From positions 224,001-288,000 of the forward strand of contig JBHLKM010000003.1 of the NCBI GenBank assembly GCA_048886685.1: a stretch of DNA of 64,000 nucleotides, given 5' to 3'. The position numbers and the translations under genes are program-made. Below are positions 6,599 to 44,623 of the stretch, in pieces. The notes beneath the pieces are model-generated. The model ran no database searches and was not told where the DNA came from. It saw only the letters and a list, made by a program, of their open reading frames with translations. Position 1 is the first letter of the stretch. Every line of letters begins with the position of its first letter. The DNA comes from Candidatus Hodarchaeota archaeon. GTDB taxonomy: Archaea; Asgardarchaeota; Lokiarchaeia; Sigyniarchaeales; SOKP01.

Positions 6599-9037
6599 AT
6601 GGTAGTTCAAGGTACTAAAATGACCCCTCTTCAAGGGATTCCCTCCGAGAGGGTTCGAAAGATTAGAGATAGAATGCTTGCTATGCCTAGAGAACTTGAT
6701 ATTGAACGAGCTCGGTGTTATACAAGAATATACAAACAAATGGAAGATGCTCCGCCCTGTATGAAGAATGTCAAAGCATTAGAGGAATTCTTACGATGTC
6801 TTCCAATAAGGATTGAGGAAGATGAGCTTCTTGTAGGCGTAAAATCTAGTAAAGTGAGAGCTGATCCAATGGAAATTGAACGTGGAATGCGTGCTAGCGT
6901 TTATGGGTTTATGTTTAATGATTCAATAGATAAAAAAATAAGAGATAGGTTTGCCAAAAGCTCACGTCTTCTTAATCGTTCTGTTCCCTTACCAAAGGAA
7001 GAAATGGATGAGTTGAAATATGAAATCATCCCCTTCTGGAAAGATAGAACTGTAGCAGCTCGAAAGCGAGAATATTGGAAAGAAGCAGGCTTAATTGAAA
7101 CAGGGGCGGCATTAGGTCCTACGGGTAGGTCTCGGAGTGGTACTGATTTATTTGCAGGTGCTAGCATGCAAGGACATGTCATTCCAGGATATAGACGAGT
7201 TCTTAAAATGGGATTTAGAGGAATTGAAAAGATGGCGCAAGAAGGCCTTGCGAAACTCAAGGAAACAGACGAAAAATATGACCAACGGAAAGATTTTTAT
7301 GAATCAGTGGTGATAGCAGCAAGAGCAGTCTGTGATTATTCCAATCGCTATACAGATCTTGCAATGAAAATGGCAGAAAATGCTTCAGAAACAAGAAAGG
7401 CTGAACTATTAGATATTGCTGAACGAACAAGACGAGTGCCAGCACTTCCCCCTAGAACATTCATAGAAGCACTTCAATCAATTTGGATGACTAATGTTGT
7501 TATGGAAATGAGTTATGGTGCAGGAAATATCTTTTCTCAAGGACGGGTTGATCAATATCTTTATCCATATTATGTTGCTGATTTAGCCGAAGGTCGTATA
7601 ACATATGAAGAAGCTTTGGAACTCATTGAAGAATATTTAGTTAAACTTGCTTCTGTCGTTATCGCAGGACAGAATAATGTAACTATCGGTGGATTAGATA
7701 AAGATGGGAATGATGCTACTACTGATGTGTCATACATGTTTCTCGAGGCTGTTGCAAATGTAAAAAGCTTATTGAATACAATATCGATACGTATTTCTTC
7801 CAAGACACCCTATAATTTTTTGAAAAGAACTATTGAAGCTTTCAAGTATACAGCCGGAATGGGTATTCATAATGATGATGTGTTAGTACCACAGCTTCAT
7901 AATACAGGATATTCATTAGAGGATGCTAGAGATTATTCACTTGTAGGATGTGTAGAACCCCATGGTACTGGTAATGATTTCTCTTATACTGCAGGGAACG
8001 CTATTCAGATTACAATCCTTCTTAACATGGCATTAAATGAAGGACGTACTATTTATTCAAGAAATAAAACTGTCGGAGCGAAAACACCCCCAGCTAAAAC
8101 TTTTAAATCTTTTGAAGATGTGAAGAAAGCCTATGTAGACCAGCTTAAATTTGCCATAGATCTCGCTGTGAGAAAAGCTGAATTAAAGGATAAAGCATAT
8201 GCAGACTATCTTCCTTCCCCATTACTTTCATCTACAATAGAAGGATGTCTCGAAAGCGGAATGGACGCAACTCGAAACGGCGCTAAATATAACAATAACC
8301 CTATGGGCTCACAAGGATTAGCGACTGTTACTGATTCCTTAGCAGCAATTCGTTGGGCTGTATTTGAAGAGAAATTAGTGACAATGGAAGAATTAGTTAC
8401 CCACATGAATAATAATTTCAAAGGAGCAGAAAAACTTCGAGAAAAATTACGAAATAAAGCTCCTAAATATGGAAATGGTGATGAGCGAACAGACGAACTT
8501 GCAAAGTGGTTTGCATCTACCCTATGTGATATTACAAGAAAATATAAAGCGAGAGGCGGTGATGGTATATATCACAATTGCCTCGTATCTTCTGGAGGAC
8601 AAGTTGCGGAAGGTAGAGCATTGGGGGCGACTGCGGATGGAAGATTAGCTTATGAGCCTATATCAAACGGCATTTCTCCTGCAAACGGTATGGAAAAGAA
8701 TGGGCTTACCATGACACTCCGATCAGTAGCTTATGCAACTGGTGAACCGCATCTAACTAATGGAGCATCAATGAATATAAGAATTAATCCTACCTTAATA
8801 GAAACAGATGAAGGAGTCGATCAATTAGCTTCTATAGTAAAGGCTTATTTAGAGTTAGGAGGACGAGAACTTCAGATAAATCCAATAAGTACAGAAACAT
8901 TAAGAGATGCACAAGCTCATCCAGAAAAATATCCCGACCTATCAGTTAAGGTTACAGGCTACTCCGCTCGATTCATAGATTTAACAAAAGAGCTTCAAGA
9001 GGATATTATCGCAAGAACAGTATTTAATGAATTATAA
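6599..9037 (+). CDS. Glycyl radical enzyme (PFL2/eliminase class), paralogue 2
   Basis: Co-linear and highly similar to GRE1; GCVEP and KVTGYSARF motifs. Confidence 0.92.
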   Translation: MVVQGTKMTPLQGIPSERVRKIRDRMLAMPRELDIERARCYTRIYKQMEDAPPCMKNVKALEEFLRCLPIRIEEDELLVGVKSSKVRADPMEIERGMRASVYGFMFNDSIDKKIRDRFAKSSRLLNRSVPLPKEEMDELKYEIIPFWKDRTVAARKREYWKEAGLIETGAALGPTGRSRSGTDLFAGASMQGHVIPGYRRVLKMGFRGIEKMAQEGLAKLKETDEKYDQRKDFYESVVIAARAVCDYSNRYTDLAMKMAENASETRKAELLDIAERTRRVPALPPRTFIEALQSIWMTNVVMEMSYGAGNIFSQGRVDQYLYPYYVADLAEGRITYEEALELIEEYLVKLASVVIAGQNNVTIGGLDKDGNDATTDVSYMFLEAVANVKSLLNTISIRISSKTPYNFLKRTIEAFKYTAGMGIHNDDVLVPQLHNTGYSLEDARDYSLVGCVEPHGTGNDFSYTAGNAIQITILLNMALNEGRTIYSRNKTVGAKTPPAKTFKSFEDVKKAYVDQLKFAIDLAVRKAELKDKAYADYLPSPLLSSTIEGCLESGMDATRNGAKYNNNPMGSQGLATVTDSLAAIRWAVFEEKLVTMEELVTHMNNNFKGAEKLREKLRNKAPKYGNGDERTDELAKWFASTLCDITRKYKARGGDGIYHNCLVSSGGQVAEGRALGATADGRLAYEPISNGISPANGMEKNGLTMTLRSVAYATGEPHLTNGASMNIRINPTLIETDEGVDQLASIVKAYLELGGRELQINPISTETLRDAQAHPEKYPDLSVKVTGYSARFIDLTKELQEDIIARTVFNEL

Positions 9038-9198: not shown

Positions 9199-10143
9199 TT
9201 AACGAGTTAAACCAGACCATTTAACCTTTTTAACCCCAGTACTTTTAGCAATTTCAAGAAAATTTTCCATCTCCTCTTTTGTCATTAATGGTTCATCTTT
9301 TAAAGGCCATGACATATCTAATCTTGAATATTTAATTTCGCAGAGTTTATTAAAACTTAATAGATCCCACTGATCAGGAATATTAATTAATTCATTTACA
9401 ATGAATTTTCCAATTTCCCTAATATTCTCTTCCGTGGCAGTATAATGTGGTATTATTGGTGTCCTTATCCACATTATCTTTCCATTTTCTTTGGTATATC
9501 GTGAAATCCATTTAGCATTTTCTAAGATTCTTTTATTTGAAACGCCCGTATATTCTTCATGTTTTTTAGCATCAATAACCTTTATATCTAAAAGAACTAT
9601 ATCAACGTAGGGTAATAAATCTTGATAAACTTTTTTACTTGAATATCCACATGTGTCTAAAGCAGTAGAAATGTCATTTTCCTTACATAATTTTAAAAGT
9701 TGTAAGAGAAAATCAGGTTGAAATGTAGGTTCACCACCAGAAACGGTTATACCTCCTTTTGTTTTATTAAAAAATATCTTTTCTTTCTCTATTTCGCGAA
9801 AAAGAATATCTAGATCCCACCACTTGCCAAACATAGTTAATGCCGTACTGGGACAGGCTTCTACACAATCTCCGCAACTATTACATTTTACTCTATTAAT
9901 ATGTAAACCATCTTCTTCAAAAAATAAAGTGTCCTCTTGGCAAGCATCTATACAACTATTACAACCAATGCATTTACGATCTATCCATTGAAGCTGAGGC
10001 TTTTTTGGAATTGATTCCGGATTGTGACACCAAACACAATTTAAGGGACAATAATTAAAAAAAATTGTTGTACGGACACCAGGACCATCGTCAGTAGCCA
10101 TTCTCTCAATTTTAAAAATTAAACCTTTAGATTTTGACTCTAT
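9199..10143 (-). CDS. GRE-activating radical SAM enzyme with 2x[4Fe-4S] ferredoxin insert; start extended from 10101 to ATA at 10143
   Basis: DGPGVRT, CPLNCVWC, CIGCNSC/CNSCGDC..CP, SGGEP, DTCGY; the conserved GLIFKIER segment lies upstream of the first ATG. Confidence 0.9.
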   Translation of the reverse strand: MESKSKGLIFKIERMATDDGPGVRTTIFFNYCPLNCVWCHNPESIPKKPQLQWIDRKCIGCNSCIDACQEDTLFFEEDGLHINRVKCNSCGDCVEACPSTALTMFGKWWDLDILFREIEKEKIFFNKTKGGITVSGGEPTFQPDFLLQLLKLCKENDISTALDTCGYSSKKVYQDLLPYVDIVLLDIKVIDAKKHEEYTGVSNKRILENAKWISRYTKENGKIMWIRTPIIPHYTATEENIREIGKFIVNELINIPDQWDLLSFNKLCEIKYSRLDMSWPLKDEPLMTKEEMENFLEIAKSTGVKKVKWSGLTR

Positions 10144-10216
10144 AATACGGCACCATAATAATTGCTAAAATGTTCTTTAAAAGAAAATACAAAAAGTACT
10201 TGAATAAAAAAATATT

Positions 10217-10237
10217 TAAATTTATTATGTAAATTTA
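10217..10237. promoter_or_regulatory. Palindromic operator copy 3 (TAAATTTAT-TAT-GTAAATTTA) in the divergent activase/TetR promoter
   Basis: Reverse complement TAAATTTACATAATAAATTTA matches copy 1 at 20 of 21 positions. Confidence 0.65.
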
Positions 10238-10255
10238 AAATCATTTTTATGTTCT

Positions 10256-10999
10256 GTGAAATTCATGATTGATGAAAAAAGCATTTCTCATAGTAATAAA
10301 AAAACGAGAAGTAGATCACCTGAGAAGAAAGCTCAACAATTTGATACTATTTTAGAAGTAGGGAAGCAATTATTCCAAGAACAAGGACGAGATGGTTTTA
10401 CACTACGTGGATTAGCAAAAAAATTAAATATGAGTCAAAATAATCTCTATAATTATGTGGAAAGTAAACGAGAACTATGGATTGCGATAAGAAAGAAGTT
10501 TTATGAACAATATCGGAATGAAAACCGGGATATTATTAAGAATTTTAGTGGATCAACCGTTGAATTATTATTAAAAATTTTTCAACACTTTTTTGAATTT
10601 GCAGAAAGAGACTATGCTGCCTTTCGAATGATGCACATTATCCGCTCCCCTCCATCAGATAAAACAGGACCGTTTGAGAGGGAATATAAACCATTTAGGT
10701 TTCTAGACGGAACCACTCGTGTAATTCAAAACGCAATTGATAAAGGAGAAATCAAAGAAAAAAATGCTGCTTTAATCTCATCCTTTTTATTTAGTATATT
10801 ATTAGGCGCAGCGATGGTAGAATACGTCATGCGGGATATTGAAACAACTAATAAAAAATCAGGAAAAAAAGTAGAGGAATTTAAACAATTTGAAACTCGA
10901 AATTTCACAAGCAATGAATTTAGGAAATATGTATTAAGGAAAATTCAAAAAGGATTACTTGATCCCAATTTGGTTTTAGATGAAACTGAATATAAATAA
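10256..10999 (+). CDS. TetR/AcrR family transcriptional regulator (likely start ATG 10265)
   Basis: ILEVGKQLFQEQGRDGFTLRGLAKKLNMSQNNLYNYVESKREL is a TetR HTH. Confidence 0.9.
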   Translation: MKFMIDEKSISHSNKKTRSRSPEKKAQQFDTILEVGKQLFQEQGRDGFTLRGLAKKLNMSQNNLYNYVESKRELWIAIRKKFYEQYRNENRDIIKNFSGSTVELLLKIFQHFFEFAERDYAAFRMMHIIRSPPSDKTGPFEREYKPFRFLDGTTRVIQNAIDKGEIKEKNAALISSFLFSILLGAAMVEYVMRDIETTNKKSGKKVEEFKQFETRNFTSNEFRKYVLRKIQKGLLDPNLVLDETEYK

Positions 11000-11054
11000 G
11001 AGTATAAGCTTTTTTCACTTATTTATAACTAAATAAAAAAATGGGTGTATAATT

Positions 11055-13073
11055 ATAACAGCGAATGAGTCTACTGAATCAAGCGATCCTCTTTTCACCG
11101 AGCCATATATTGATATTGATGAGTGGCGGGATGAGCCCGTACGTCATAGATATGTCCATGGTGGTTTTAAAGGTACCGATGCCCTATTTTCGATCTATTT
11201 CCCACCGAAGGAACAATATGATGGTCAGTTCTTCCAGTATATCATGCCGATATCGGGGAACGAGAAGGTTGCACAATCACCAGAATCCTCTAATGCCAGC
11301 TATGCGTTAGGCTTTGTCTTCGAGAGTGGCGCTTATTTTGTTGAATCAAACCTGGGGAGGAAGGACATGTTCCCTGGCGAAGATCCTACCATCGCGGGGT
11401 ATCGAACAAGTGCGGCAGTAGCGAACTACTCGCGCGTTTTGGCCTCTAAAATGTATGGTCCCCAACGCCACTATGGTTATGCATGGGGTGGTAGTGGTGG
11501 AGGATATAAGACCATCAGTTGTATTGAAAACACAGAAGGTGTTTGGGACGGTGCGGTCCCATTTATTCACGCAACACCAATGGCCATGATCAATGTATTC
11601 TCTGTGCAGGCCCATGCAATGCGCATATTGAAAGAAAAGGTACCCTCCATCGTCGATGCGGTAGAACCTGGTGGTAGTGGAGACATGTACGCTGATTTAA
11701 ATGAAGAGGAACGAGAAGCTCTTACCGAAGTGACTAAGATGGGATTTCCGCCAAGAGCTTGGTTCAATTACAGGAGGATAGCGTTCGGCTACACCGGAGT
11801 CTTAACCACCCTCCTTGACATAGTGATTAAATGGGATCCCACATATTTTGAAGATTTTTGGAAGGTTCCGGGTTACCTTGGTGCGGATCCGCCCGAGTCA
11901 CTCCTACGCGCCCGGATCCAGCATGAAACAACAATTACCAAACTTATAATGCCCGAAGATATCAAGAAAATGGGTCAGTCACTGTCAATATCTGCCGGGC
12001 AAGCGGGTAACATAACAGTCCCAGCAGGATTAGTATTCGAAAGCGTGCCTGAGGGTGAAATACAAGGAGCATCATTGTTTTTAAAAAGTGGTGAAGCAGA
12101 GGGTCGAGTTGCTTATGCTGTTGCAGCCTTCGGTAATACGGTAATGCTTGCCTATGGGGAGGAAAACTATCCATATCTAGCAGGTATCAAGGTGGGTGAC
12201 AAAGTGCTGATTGATAATTCTAATTATCTCGCTGCTCAAACCTATCATCGCCATCAGGTACCCTCACCTGAATATAAGGTTTGGGACCAGTTCCGAGATG
12301 CTGATGGTAAACCGGTGTATCCACAGCGACCCGAGATATTAGGCCCGCGTCACGCCTATCAAGGAGCAGGCTCGGTTCAGATTGGTAAGTTTAAGGGTAA
12401 GATGATTGTAGTAAATACTTTGATGGACGAAGCTGCCTATCCTTGGCAGGCTGATTGGTATCGTTTGAAGGTAAAAGAGGCATTGGGAGATAAATTCGAT
12501 GACAACTACCGGCTCTGGTTTATTGACCATGCAATGCATACACCACCGGTGATCACATCATTCAATTCCCGTCCAGCAATAACTACACGCATCATCAATT
12601 ATAGTGGGGTGTTGCAACAAGCGCTGCGTGATGTGAGCGCATGGGTAGAAAAAGGTGTGGTTCCCCCTGCGAGTACTACTTACAAAGTGGTAGATGGTCA
12701 AGTGCAAGTACCACCGACTGCTATTGGCCGCAAGGGAGTGCAACCGGTTGTCAACCTTACAGTAAATGGGGGTGTGCGTGCAGACGTTACAGTTGGAGAG
12801 ACGGTTGAATTCTCTGGAGTTATCGAAGCACCCTCAGATGCCGGTTCAATAGTCTCTGCGGAATGGGATTTCGAGGGTGCTGGTGATTATCCAGTCAAGC
12901 ACCAACTTAATGACATCAAGAGTACTCGTGTGGAAGTGAAAACTACTTATGCCTTCTCCAAACCTGGCACTTACTTCCCAGTAATTCGTGGATCATTACA
13001 TAGACAAGGTGACCCAGAAACTAAATGGGCACGGATCCAGAATCTCGGTCGTGTAAGGGTCGTAGTAAAGTAA
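11055..13073 (+). CDS. Tannase/feruloyl-esterase-like alpha/beta hydrolase with C-terminal PKD-like domain; start extended from 11244 to ATA 11055
   Basis: Nucleophile elbow GGSGGG, DEAA and DHAMH candidate triad segments, WDFEG..TYAFSKPGTY PKD-like motif; in-frame upstream DPLFTEPYIDIDEWRDEPVRHRYVHGGF. Confidence 0.65.
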   Translation: MTANESTESSDPLFTEPYIDIDEWRDEPVRHRYVHGGFKGTDALFSIYFPPKEQYDGQFFQYIMPISGNEKVAQSPESSNASYALGFVFESGAYFVESNLGRKDMFPGEDPTIAGYRTSAAVANYSRVLASKMYGPQRHYGYAWGGSGGGYKTISCIENTEGVWDGAVPFIHATPMAMINVFSVQAHAMRILKEKVPSIVDAVEPGGSGDMYADLNEEEREALTEVTKMGFPPRAWFNYRRIAFGYTGVLTTLLDIVIKWDPTYFEDFWKVPGYLGADPPESLLRARIQHETTITKLIMPEDIKKMGQSLSISAGQAGNITVPAGLVFESVPEGEIQGASLFLKSGEAEGRVAYAVAAFGNTVMLAYGEENYPYLAGIKVGDKVLIDNSNYLAAQTYHRHQVPSPEYKVWDQFRDADGKPVYPQRPEILGPRHAYQGAGSVQIGKFKGKMIVVNTLMDEAAYPWQADWYRLKVKEALGDKFDDNYRLWFIDHAMHTPPVITSFNSRPAITTRIINYSGVLQQALRDVSAWVEKGVVPPASTTYKVVDGQVQVPPTAIGRKGVQPVVNLTVNGGVRADVTVGETVEFSGVIEAPSDAGSIVSAEWDFEGAGDYPVKHQLNDIKSTRVEVKTTYAFSKPGTYFPVIRGSLHRQGDPETKWARIQNLGRVRVVVK

Positions 13074-13328
13074 TTATATTGAATGATACTCAAGGTTTAT
13101 ATATTTAATAATATCTTCCTACAAAATTTTGTTATCTTAGATTAATCTATTAATAATTGATATTGATTCCAAATTTAAATTCAATACTAATTTCATGTTC
13201 TTCAATCAAATGAAGGACATAATTAGAAAATTGATACCCTTTAGGAGCAAAAATATAATATTTGAGGTTTATAAAACAAAAACATGAAATTTTTGTTGTA
13301 TAAATGATTATAAAAAATAGTCATAAAA

Positions 13329-16199
13329 ATGAGTCAGAATTCAATTATTATTAAAGGAGCAAGGCAGAACAATCTAAAAAACATAAATGTTATAATTCCT
13401 CGTAATAAATTAGTAGTTATTACTGGAATTAGTGGGAGTGGAAAGTCATCTTTAGCAATGGATACATTGTATGCGGAGGGACAAAGAAGGTTTTTAGAAT
13501 CACTATCCAGTTATGCAAGACAATTCTTAGGTGAAATGGACAAGCCAGATGTAGATTCAATTGAAGGATTGTCGCCTGCAATTGCAATAGAACAAAAACC
13601 ACTCTCTAAAAATCCAAGAAGTACGGTAGGAACTGTCACAGAAATTTATGATTATTATAGGTTATTATTTGCTAATATTGGTATCCCACATTGCCCCAAT
13701 TGTGGAAAAGAAATAAAACCCCAAACACCACAACAAATTATTCAAATACTTCTAAATTCTATTAAAGAAAATCAGAAATTTATAATCAAGGCCCCTCTAA
13801 TAAGAGACAGAAAGGGGGAATATAAAGAACTTCTGCAGGATTTAAGAAAGCAGGGTTATGTAAGAGTAGAAGTAGATGGGATTCAGTATACTTTAGATGA
13901 AGAGATAACAATGAAAAAGAATATGAAGCATAATATCAACGTAATCCTTGACAGATTAGTAATGCGTAAAGATATAAAAACAAGATTAGCTGATTCGATC
14001 GAAAATGCCTTAGATCTAGCAGAAGGATTAGTTATCGTTGAAATCATTGACGAAGGAGAACAAATATATTCAGAACACCTTGCTTGTATAGATTGTGGAA
14101 TATCATTTCCTCAGCTAGATCATAAAATGTTTTCATTTAATATCCCTCATGGAAGTTGTAGGTATTGTAGTGGATTAGGCACTGTTATGGAATTTGATTA
14201 TGGATTAGTATTAGGAAATGATTTAACTGCACCACTTAAAGACACCCCAATCAGAGATATTCCTGGATTTGGATCTGAGACAGGTTATTCTTGGCAAACC
14301 ATAGAACAAGTCGCAAAACATTATGGGTTTAATGCCAATAAGACTCAATTACAAGAAATTGATCCGGAGAAATTACACAGGTTATTATTTGGTTCTGAAA
14401 ATGAATCAATAGATTTTCATTTTGAAAATAATGGAAATGATTACAAGAACCAAAATGGTGAATTTAAATCATCCTGGGATGTTGTGAGACCTTTCGAGGG
14501 AATTATTCCAATATTACATAGAAGATATATGGAGACTCGCTCTGAATGGGCTCGGGAGATCTATGAAAGTTTTATGAATAGGATTTCATGTCCTCAATGT
14601 AAAGGAAAAAGGTTAAAACCTGAGAGCTTAGCAGTTACTATAAATGATCTAAACATCGCACAACTATCAGATTTGACAGTAAAAGAATCAACTAAATTTT
14701 TTAATTTATTGCAGCTAAGTGAAACTGAAAAAACCATAGCAAAAGAAATATTAAAAGAAATTTCGGATAGATTGTCATTTTTAGAAAATGTGGGTTTGGA
14801 TTATATTTCATTAAGCCGTCGCTCACACACATTATCTGTTGGAGAAGCAGAGAGAATAAGATTAGCAACTCAATTAGGTTCTAGTTTAGTAGGTGTATTA
14901 TATGTATTAGATGAGCCAAGTGTAGGTCTACATCAACGAGATATAGATAGACTCATAAATATGTTAAAAAAATTAAGAGATTTAGGTAATACTGTTATTG
15001 TAGTTGAGCATGATGAGGCAATAATGCAAAATGCAGATCATATCATTGATTTAGGACCCTTAGCTGGTGAAAAGGGTGGAGAAATAGTAGCAGAGGGACC
15101 AATAGAACAAATTATTAAAGCTAATACGTTAACTGGAAGATATTTATCAGGAAAGGAAAAAATTGATATACCACAGAGTAGACGTAAAACAAATTATGAA
15201 TTTCTTCAAGTAATAGGAGCAAGAGAAAATAATTTGAAGAATATTAATGTGAAGATTCCTCTAGGGATATTTACTTGTGTAACAGGCGTTTCAGGGGCAG
15301 GTAAGACAAGTTTGATTATCGATTGTCTATATAAAGGTTTACATAATCTTATCAACACACGTAGTTCAAAAATCAGTGAAGGGGATTTTGATACTATTGA
15401 AGGTTATGAAAAAATAGATAAAATTATTAATATTGACCAATCACCAATAGGAAGAACTCCAAGATCAGTTCCCTCAACTTATACAAAAGCTTTAGATTAT
15501 ATCAGAGATATTTTTGCTCAATTACCTGAATCAAAAGAAAGGGGTTATAAAAAAGGGAGATTTAGTTTCAATACTAAAGCAGGTCATTGTAAGAAATGCA
15601 AGGGTACTGGTTATATCCTAAAAGAAATGTACTTCCTTCCTGATGTTTATATTAGATGCGATTTATGTAAAGGAAAACGATATAATGCAGAAACATTAGA
15701 AATCAAATATAGAGAAAAATCGATTTCAGATGTTTTAAAAATGACATTTAATCAAGCTTTAGAATTTTTTGACAGCTTTCCAAATTTAAAGAGAACTTTA
15801 CAAACAGTAGTAGATGTAGGTTTAGGTTATTTAGAATTAGGTCAATCATCAACAACTCTTAGTGGTGGAGAATCCCAAAGACTAAAAATCGCAAGGGAAT
15901 TACGAAAAACTAGTACAGGAAATACTCTCTATATCTTAGATGAGCCTACCACCGGATTACACATGTATGATATTAAATTTTTGTTAGATGTACTTCAAAA
16001 ATTAGTCGATAAAGGTAACACAGTAATAATTATTGAGCATAATATGGATATAATTAAATCTGTTGATTATATAATAGATCTTGGGCCCGAGGGTGGAGAA
16101 AAAGGCGGAGAGATTGTAGTTTTAGGGACTCCCGAAGAAATTGCTAAAGATAATAATTCTTACACCTCTCAATTTTTAAATAAATACTTAAATAATTAA
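13329..16199 (+). CDS. uvrA: Excinuclease ABC subunit A
   Basis: GARQNNLKNI, GISGSGKSSL, YAEGQRR, Zn fingers, two ABC domains. Confidence 0.97.
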   Translation: MSQNSIIIKGARQNNLKNINVIIPRNKLVVITGISGSGKSSLAMDTLYAEGQRRFLESLSSYARQFLGEMDKPDVDSIEGLSPAIAIEQKPLSKNPRSTVGTVTEIYDYYRLLFANIGIPHCPNCGKEIKPQTPQQIIQILLNSIKENQKFIIKAPLIRDRKGEYKELLQDLRKQGYVRVEVDGIQYTLDEEITMKKNMKHNINVILDRLVMRKDIKTRLADSIENALDLAEGLVIVEIIDEGEQIYSEHLACIDCGISFPQLDHKMFSFNIPHGSCRYCSGLGTVMEFDYGLVLGNDLTAPLKDTPIRDIPGFGSETGYSWQTIEQVAKHYGFNANKTQLQEIDPEKLHRLLFGSENESIDFHFENNGNDYKNQNGEFKSSWDVVRPFEGIIPILHRRYMETRSEWAREIYESFMNRISCPQCKGKRLKPESLAVTINDLNIAQLSDLTVKESTKFFNLLQLSETEKTIAKEILKEISDRLSFLENVGLDYISLSRRSHTLSVGEAERIRLATQLGSSLVGVLYVLDEPSVGLHQRDIDRLINMLKKLRDLGNTVIVVEHDEAIMQNADHIIDLGPLAGEKGGEIVAEGPIEQIIKANTLTGRYLSGKEKIDIPQSRRKTNYEFLQVIGARENNLKNINVKIPLGIFTCVTGVSGAGKTSLIIDCLYKGLHNLINTRSSKISEGDFDTIEGYEKIDKIINIDQSPIGRTPRSVPSTYTKALDYIRDIFAQLPESKERGYKKGRFSFNTKAGHCKKCKGTGYILKEMYFLPDVYIRCDLCKGKRYNAETLEIKYREKSISDVLKMTFNQALEFFDSFPNLKRTLQTVVDVGLGYLELGQSSTTLSGGESQRLKIARELRKTSTGNTLYILDEPTTGLHMYDIKFLLDVLQKLVDKGNTVIIIEHNMDIIKSVDYIIDLGPEGGEKGGEIVVLGTPEEIAKDNNSYTSQFLNKYLNN

Positions 16200-16228
16200 T
16201 AAATCCTTAACAACTTAAGGTGTTCTAA

Positions 16229-16693
16229 ATACAAATAATTTCAGCAGAGGAATCCCATCTACCAGGGATATTGGAAGTATGGAAAGAATTTATGGATTAT
16301 CATAAAAATTTAGATTCTTTGTTTACCAGAAGAGAAAATGGTCATCTAAATTTCGAAACATATATTAAGGAATTAATTAAGTCAAATAGTGCTCAGGTTT
16401 TAGTAGTTTTAGACAAAGAAGATGTTGTAGGATATTCAATATCTCTTATACAATTTTACCCTCCCGTCTTTAAACGAAGAATTTATGGTTTAATTAATGA
16501 TTTAGCCGTAAAAGAATCCCATAGAAGGAAAGGTTTAGGAGAACAAATGCTTTTTAAAATGTTTCAATGGTTTGAATCTCATGGGTTAGATAGAATCGAA
16601 TTGCGCGTCTCTGTGAGAAATAAAATAGCCTATTCATTTTGGAAGAAACATGGATTTAAAGACTATCAGCATATTTTATATTTAAAAAGGTAA
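16229..16693 (+). CDS. GNAT acetyltransferase; start extended from 16271 to ATA 16229
   Basis: Motif A VKESHRRKGLG, N..A..FW.KHGF; upstream in-frame QIISAEESHLPGI fits the GNAT beta1/alpha1 start. Confidence 0.85.
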   Translation: MQIISAEESHLPGILEVWKEFMDYHKNLDSLFTRRENGHLNFETYIKELIKSNSAQVLVVLDKEDVVGYSISLIQFYPPVFKRRIYGLINDLAVKESHRRKGLGEQMLFKMFQWFESHGLDRIELRVSVRNKIAYSFWKKHGFKDYQHILYLKR

Positions 16694-43828: not shown

Positions 43829-44623
43829 TTAAAATGAATCTATATACCTATAGGCTCCTTTCACGTTATTAATCTGACTTTCAAAATAATCTAATGAATG
43901 TGAATCAGAGCCAACAAAAAATTTTCCTCCTTCCTTCATTAAAAGAGATATTACCGATTTTGAAGGGAAAGAACGTCCAATTGAAAATTTCTTCCCAGAT
44001 AAATTATATTCAATACGTATATTGTTTTTTATGCAAAGTCGACCTAATTCCAACACTCGTTCTTCTGAGACGTCACAGTCCTCCTCAGGTTTTATGTCAT
44101 TTTCATTAATATATCGGAATATCGTATCGATATGACAAATATTTTTGAAAATTTTAGAATTTATCATCATTTCTGATGTTTCAAAATATTCATCAATAAT
44201 CTCTTTCATTTTTTTCTTTTCGAGAAATTTGATTAATTTCTCTTTGGACGTTATAGGATACCCAAAAATCCATTCATGGATGGTACCCCCAATGAAATCT
44301 AATTCTTTTTCATAATCATCCATAAATTCCAATAGCTCTATTTCTCTATCTTTATAATACTCAACTTCAAGTCCACTATAAATGAAATCATATGTTTCCT
44401 TTATCTCATCGAGTTCCTCTAAGTAGTTATCAATATTCCCATTATAGAATGGATTGCTCTTATCTTTTTCAATATAGTACAGCTCATAATGTTCTAAAAA
44501 ACAGACATTTATTTCATTTTTCTCCGCTATTTTTATATAATCCTCGAATATGGGACCATTTTCTTCGATATCAGCACTCCATTTAGCAGTGTGAACATGA
44601 TAATCAGTATATTTAAACTTCAT
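43829..44623 (-). CDS. PHP-domain phosphatase (histidinol-phosphatase-like)
   Basis: DYHVHT, LEH, GLEVEY, HID, GSDSH. Confidence 0.85.
   Translation of the reverse strand: MKFKYTDYHVHTAKWSADIEENGPIFEDYIKIAEKNEINVCFLEHYELYYIEKDKSNPFYNGNIDNYLEELDEIKETYDFIYSGLEVEYYKDREIELLEFMDDYEKELDFIGGTIHEWIFGYPITSKEKLIKFLEKKKMKEIIDEYFETSEMMINSKIFKNICHIDTIFRYINENDIKPEEDCDVSEERVLELGRLCIKNNIRIEYNLSGKKFSIGRSFPSKSVISLLMKEGGKFFVGSDSHSLDYFESQINNVKGAYRYIDSF

Follow-up and report, generated by a model that had tools for sequence, protein, structure and literature searches.

Can genes of an Asgard archaeon begin at codons other than ATG, GTG or TTG, and can they do so regularly? The question is raised by three genes of Candidatus Hodarchaeota archaeon (Lokiarchaeia, Sigyniarchaeales, SOKP01; assembly GCA_048886685.1) in the 64,000-nucleotide stretch of DNA analysed here (the window), encoding a glycyl-radical-enzyme activase, an alpha/beta-hydrolase-like protein (the second gene) and a GNAT acetyltransferase. 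In each of them an ATA codon stands behind a GGTG Shine-Dalgarno (SD) motif and upstream of the first canonical start codon, and the evidence favours initiation at this codon, as one case of initiation at ATA, ATT or ATC (ATH; AUH in mRNA). The positions of the relevant features, in window coordinates, are:

Window: contig C3 (JBHLKM010000003.1), positions 224001-288000, from a genome of 4.42 Mb in 47 contigs with 30.9% GC
9199..10143, minus strand: coding sequence of the activase read from ATA, 314 codons plus stop
10141..10143, minus strand: putative ATA start codon of the activase, retained as ATA in five congeners
10150..10153, minus strand: GGTG SD core of the activase, with a 7-nt spacer to the ATA
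10099..10101, minus strand: first canonical ATG of the activase, within a conserved N-terminal motif, 14 codons past the ATA
11055..13073, plus strand: second gene read from ATA, alpha/beta-hydrolase-like with a C-terminal PKD domain, 672 codons
11044..11047, plus strand: GGTG SD core of the second gene, with a 7-nt spacer to the ATA at 11055
11055..11057, plus strand: putative ATA start codon of the second gene, the ATT at 11052 being a less likely alternative
11244..11246, plus strand: first canonical ATG of the second gene, 63 codons into the conserved protein and the start of the public 609-aa call
16229..16693, plus strand: coding sequence of the GNAT acetyltransferase read from ATA, 154 codons plus stop
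16217..16222, plus strand: AAGGTG SD motif of the GNAT gene, with a 6-nt spacer (ttcTAA) to the ATA at 16229
16226..16231, plus strand: in-frame TAA followed directly by the putative ATA start of the GNAT gene

GGTG is followed by ATA after 6-7 nt in all three genes, with coordinates and strings exactly as the first-pass annotation had given them. As it had also claimed, conserved N-terminal sequence lies 5' of the first ATG, GTG or TTG and is bounded by an in-frame stop, found 0-7 codons upstream at the three sites (7 codons 5' of the ATA in the activase, 6 in the second gene and immediately adjacent in the GNAT gene, of which the first canonical codons are a TTG at 16271 and an ATG at 16292). 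No in-frame ATG, GTG or TTG occurs between the upstream stop and the conserved N-terminus at any of the three sites, and the coding frames of all three genes are intact, with neither frameshifts nor internal stops. Leaderless initiation was considered and rejected, since an SD motif is present at every site. Judged from the sequences, the three genes very probably initiate at the ATH codon adjacent to the SD motif. Given the density of such sites in the genome, the occurrence of three within 6 kb has P ~3e-4 for a fixed stretch of 6.1 kb, a value that is uncorrected for the choice of this stretch by the first-pass annotation.

Where, then, do the conserved proteins begin? Read from the ATA, the activase is a full-length match to TIGR02494 (308 bits versus a cut-off of 174; profile positions 1-292 of 293). 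Position 1 of this profile corresponds to residue 9, and position 2 of the related equivalog profile NF048010 to residue 3. The first ATG is residue 15 and lies inside a conserved motif, so that a start at the first canonical codon would lead to the loss of conserved core motifs. The ATA column is retained in five congeners (83-100% identity) and the in-frame residues 5' of it vary freely among congeners, which indicates that conservation begins at the ATA. In a homologue of another family, as well as in a paralogue group, an ATG or TTG is found at most one codon from the ATA column.

The second gene shows a similar arrangement, in that GGTG, a variable 7-nt spacer and ATA are retained in four congeners (70-100% identity). 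One of these orthologues has an in-frame TAA just two codons 5' of the ATA, and a homologue of another family has an ATG nearby. Over the 62 codons between the ATA and the first ATG, the ratio of nonsynonymous to synonymous substitution rates (dN/dS) is 0.05-0.33 (~0.1), at dS values of 0.2-2.2. The extension is therefore under purifying selection in species none of which has a canonical start in this region, which points to its translation in frame. The protein itself is less easily named. Its sole Pfam match is the C-terminal PKD domain, and searches of NCBIfam and of PDB sequences gave no useful match. The nearest ESM Atlas clusters also carry PKD and contain proteins of 662-685 aa, which fits the 672 residues counted from the ATA rather than 609. 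The label 'tannase-like' given by the first-pass annotation finds a lead in these clusters, 16-28% of the members of which carry the tannase/feruloyl esterase family PF07519. However, membership is not borne out by Pfam (no match to PF07519 at E <= 0.001), NCBIfam or PDB. Two paralogues of the second gene, L018 (in genome G017) and L019 (in genome G003), are likewise without a canonical start before their conserved IDIDEWRD motif; in these, a CTG stands 8 nt and an ATA 11 nt after GGTG, and the CTG may also serve.

The GNAT protein (PF00583, E = 4e-15, 56.4 bits versus a gathering score of 20.7) differs in that the canonical codon is found within the genus itself. The sister species G011 (88% identity) has an identical AAGGTG and ttcTAA, followed by ATG in place of ATA, and in further congeners the same column reads ATG in two and ATT in one. 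Alignment of orthologues thus places an ATG at, or at most one codon from, the position of the ATA (in the GNAT sister species and, for the other two genes, in homologues from other families). The extensions hold conserved N-terminal sequence, with purifying selection on that of the second gene, and in both respects the extensions proposed by the first-pass annotation hold up.

Several points nevertheless weigh against initiation at these ATA codons. The GNAT ATA is seen in this genome only and may be a recent loss of ATG to ATA. An ATT stands one codon 5' of the ATA in both the activase and the second gene, which makes the precise initiating codon ambiguous, and all genomes compared are metagenome-assembled. 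Furthermore, the activase of G011 (locus L004) differs in length by 1 nt, so that the ATG of ATGGTG comes into frame four codons upstream, and it has GTA at the ATA column. Here the two start solutions, ATG and ATH, may have been exchanged within the genus. A sequencing or assembly error, or a frameshift that hides an upstream out-of-frame ATG (10156 on the minus strand for the activase, 11042 for the second gene), could draw support from the same 1-nt difference and from the out-of-frame ATGs that adjoin both GGTG motifs. However, independent assemblies agree in the ATA and the frame of the activase and of the second gene, and sequencing error is thereby excluded for these two. The upstream ATG is absent in three of six activase orthologues and, for the second gene, at least in G011, and the same arrangement is seen at dozens of loci as well as in over 60 species. 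An explanation by error or hidden frameshift is therefore extremely improbable.

Is the combination of SD motif and ATH codon more frequent in the genome than expected? The 3' end of the 16S rRNA reads GGATCACCTCCT, which makes GGTG a true SD core, and before the confident ATG and TTG starts of the genome GGTG shows a spacing peak at 7-8 nt. The search covered 3332 stop-to-stop open reading frames (ORFs) of at least 150 codons, in which in-frame codons at least 10 codons 5' of the first ATG, GTG or TTG were considered. Counts were resolved by spacing, since SD windows of 5-10 nt blur the signal by including the neighbours of true starts. GGTG was found exactly 7 nt before 27 of the 1835 ATH codons (ATA 11, ATT 10, ATC 6). 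Among the other sense codons it stood at this distance in 10 of 11853 cases (odds ratio 17.7, p = 2e-16), and among AT-rich control codons in 3 of 4549. The same spacing was found before 20/2229 first-ATG and 19/742 first-TTG starts. SD 5-mers give the same ATH-specific spacing peak. The genome-wide count of SD motifs followed by ATA or ATT, named as a check in the first-pass annotation, thus gives a sharp peak that is specific to ATH.

This spacing also bears on which of the codons near each SD motif is used. Instead of the ATA codons named above, the SD motif could direct initiation to a neighbouring near-cognate codon, namely the ATT at 10146-10144 in the activase, the ATT at 11052 in the second gene, or the ATA at 16235 or ATT at 16238 in the GNAT gene. 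This would be a variant of the same reading, as it would still be non-AUG initiation, and it draws some support from the tandem ATT-ATA at two of the sites, which in the second gene is present in all four orthologues. The spacing of ATH, ATG and TTG, however, peaks sharply at 7 nt, whereas the ATT codons lie at 4 nt. Moreover, two congeners have AAC or ATA in place of the activase ATT, and the ATG of the GNAT orthologues aligns with the ATA at 16229. A start at one of the neighbouring codons is thus unlikely, and the ATA codons 6-7 nt from the SD motif remain the preferred starts.

With a tight rule (an SD 5-mer or GGTG at an aligned spacing of 6-8 nt), there are 86 SD+ATH candidates, compared to 122 first-ATG starts. 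The upstream stop lies at a median distance of 4 codons from these candidates, versus 8 for SD-like motifs before other codons (23 for those located 10 or more codons 5' of the first canonical start), and the composition is non-coding on the 5' side of the candidates and of the coding type on the 3' side. On the other side of the balance, the frequency of SD motifs before other codons, taken as background, would by itself account for ~41 of the 86. This leaves a firm floor of roughly 45-60 SD+ATH genes, or 1.5-2% of the long ORFs, and the true number of genes with an ATH start is probably higher. A count of 145-170 ORFs with coding-like leaders, obtained with a codon-usage mixture, was dropped, as many of these look like antisense artefacts. 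A phosphoglycerate-mutase-like ORF on contig C4 (genome G000, minus strand) has a conserved LVLLRHGES N-terminus 69 codons 5' of its first canonical start and an in-frame ATA ~3 nt after GAGGT, so that spacings outside 6-8 nt may be permitted as well.

Protein families give a separate view of these candidates. For validation, the candidates were limited to those that stand 15 or more codons 5' of the first canonical start and no more than 12 codons 3' of the upstream stop. Of the 31 that remained, the 30 not belonging to the three genes were scanned against Pfam. The domain alignment begins 5' of the first canonical codon in 16 of them; in 7 the domains lie only further downstream, and the other 7 have no family. 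Among these 16, most have profile positions 1-7 within the first dozen residues after the ATH, while in four the domain starts at residue 13-25. The families concerned include ThiF, GPN ATP_bind_1, ATP-grasp_2, Response_reg, CTP_transf_like and Roadblock, as well as VTC, CoA_binding, HMA, CheR_N, XPD helicase domains and DUF4386.

How far does the phenomenon extend beyond this genome? The GPN-loop GTPase (C13:73172), a housekeeping gene, has ATA, ATT or ATC behind a GAGGT SD motif in all 21 congeners, and the corresponding column is ATG or GTG in genera that belong to other families of the order. Among 64 species-level loci, taken from public metagenome-assembled genomes titled Promethearchaeota or Promethearchaeia (including Loki_b31 and Loki_b32), its start codon is ATT in 48, ATA in 7, ATG in 7, TTG in 1 and CAG in 1. 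Mapped onto a tree of 61 of these genes, the start codon shows 6 changes, versus 12-20 (median 15) for each of 13 conserved internal Ile codons, counts that are descriptive because the species are related. The lower number of changes indicates a stronger constraint on the third base of the start ATH than on that of synonymous Ile codons, which would fit a functional start codon whose identity matters. The proposal that AUA and AUU starts are common in 'this lineage' accordingly stands for one genus of the Promethearchaeia; in other families of the order, the genes examined mostly start at ATG, GTG or TTG.

The constraint on the GPN start is also difficult to reconcile with a simple decay of start codons, in which an AT-biased mutation would have turned ATG into ATA and left the genes silent, as pseudogenes, or with truncated products from a downstream canonical codon. 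Such decay would be in line with the 31% GC of the genome, with the ATG of the sister species at the ATA column of the GNAT gene, and with the exchange of ATG and ATH at the same position between species of the genus. On the other hand, ATA is retained across four to five species in two of the genes, the extension of the second gene has a dN/dS of ~0.1, a start at the first canonical codon would delete conserved core motifs, and the three genes have no frameshifts or internal stops by which pseudogenes would be recognised. Together with the start ATH of the GPN gene evolving more slowly than synonymous Ile codons, this makes decay a decidedly improbable explanation compared to genuine initiation at ATH.

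By what mechanism could AUH be used as a start? The GGUG core of the mRNA would pair with the 3' end of the 16S rRNA (...GGAUCACCUCCU), and this pairing would put the AUA, 6-7 nt further 3', into the P site. There the ordinary initiator tRNA (anticodon CAU) would pair with the first two bases of AUA, with the mismatch at the third being tolerated, and the first residue of the protein would presumably be Met. The initiator tRNA (C30:10443-10546) is indeed standard, with A1:U72, GGG/CCC in the anticodon stem and a CAT anticodon, which means that AUH would be read with a third-position mismatch. Its gene, which is interrupted by a 25-nt intron immediately 3' of the anticodon, was located by the anticodon-stem motif; ARAGORN found only 14 tRNAs when run without introns and gave unreliable calls (e.g. 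Pyl and 'Stop') with them. By this mechanism ATA, ATT and ATC behind a good SD motif would be regular start codons throughout the genus, in at least ~1.5-3% of the long genes, also of housekeeping genes and of the initiation factor aIF1, by which start codons are proofread.

The start of aIF1 is of particular relevance here. The single SUI1/aIF1 gene (PF01253; contig C33 of G000, 8644-8859, minus strand; L030) has in-frame TGA and TAA, then two sense codons and ATT, with no canonical start before the zinc knuckle. The ATT is retained in ~21 congeners, while other families of the order start this gene at GTG, TTG or ATA, and the start is therefore weak in every family examined. As in bacterial infC, the gene of the fidelity factor itself starts at a near-cognate codon, which would fit a possible self-limiting loop like that of infC or of eukaryotic eIF1. 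The 'relaxed start-codon fidelity' put forward in the first-pass annotation would fit the ATT start of aIF1 as well, although this does not prove it, and the initiator tRNA is standard. We infer both the actual initiation at AUA and a tuning of fidelity via the dosage of aIF1. Tentatively, discrimination at the third position of AUH may have been re-tuned in the genus, with AUH as a selected class of start codons that sets expression and feedback through the aIF1 start at AUU governing the permissiveness.

ATT, ATC and ATA are listed as starts in NCBI table 11, and the classic case of AUU is bacterial infC, with pcnB as another; in E. coli, initiation at AUU or AUA is known from only a couple of genes. 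The genes described here resemble infC and pcnB in having a near-cognate AUH behind an SD motif with a normal initiator tRNA and, in infC and aIF1, a fidelity-factor gene on AUU. They differ in that dozens of genes, housekeeping genes included, are concerned throughout a whole archaeal genus, and in that the fidelity factor is the eIF1-like aIF1 rather than IF3. Being the homologue of eIF1, aIF1 with a weak start on its own mRNA would follow the same negative-feedback logic as eukaryotic eIF1 autoregulation. Near-cognate initiation in eukaryotes is otherwise different, as it relies on scanning and favours CUG, GUG and ACG in a Kozak context, whereas here AUA, AUU and AUC would be selected by SD placement. 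Mitochondria (tables 2 and 5) also use ATA, ATT and ATC as routine starts in AT-rich genomes, but with AUA reassigned to Met or with a modified initiator tRNA (f5C34), whereas internal ATA codons here align with Ile and the genetic code appears to be standard. Within the Asgard archaea, the AtubA tubulin gene of Kariarchaeaceae 'likely' uses 'a rare ATT start codon' (PMC13394414, 2026). That gene, too, was annotated short, and its product regains a conserved N-terminal strand when read from an upstream ATT that is plausibly spaced from the ribosome-binding site. It is, however, a single gene of another Asgard family, for which no genome- or lineage-wide claim was made. Apart from this remark, the literature searched yielded no systematic treatment of ATH starts in the Asgard archaea.

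The genes that surround the three sites are the following:

6599..9037, plus strand: glycyl radical enzyme of the PFL2/glycerol-dehydratase type (TIGR01774, E = 2e-158), convergent with the activase
10256..10999, plus strand: TetR-family regulator (PF00440), divergent from the activase and just 5' of the second gene
13329..16199, plus strand: UvrA-like ABC ATPase, given as an ORF with its translation and identified as UvrA-like by reading the sequence only

The glycyl radical enzyme is likely the partner of the activase, and a coupling of the GNAT gene to the UvrA-like ABC ATPase, which ends 29 nt before the GNAT ATA, is possible. Short out-of-frame ORFs run from the ATGs that adjoin two of the SD motifs (10127-10156 on the minus strand, at ATGGTG, and 11042-11053 on the plus strand, at ATGGGTG); these are probably incidental, without conservation in the orthologues. 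Two weaker candidates for an ATH start lie elsewhere in the window, one at 2114 on the plus strand (GAGGT, 7 nt, ATC, with a canonical codon immediately after) and one at 43835 on the minus strand (AGGT, 9 nt, ATT, 10 codons 5' of the first canonical start).

What are the consequences for the annotation of these organisms? In the public protein collection the second gene is present as 609 aa (from the ATG at 11244) and, in two near-identical sequences from other contigs, as 568 aa. The GNAT protein is present as 133 aa and 140 aa, while the ATG-bearing orthologue of the sister species has the full 154 aa. A 300-aa, ATG-started form of the activase was not found in this collection. Truncation of annotations, as expected by the first-pass annotation, is thus seen for two of the three genes, with 63 residues (second gene) and 21 residues (GNAT) missing from the public calls. 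Gene finders that are confined to ATG, GTG and TTG shorten such proteins or miss them, and the shortened calls distort domain content, structure prediction and searches of Asgard genomes for eukaryotic signature proteins. Regular AUH initiation would span housekeeping genes as well as the proofreading factor aIF1, in a lineage near the origin of eukaryotes, and would thereby offer a concrete system in which to ask what sets the stringency of start-codon choice and by what route this stringency evolved between SD-guided and scanning initiation.

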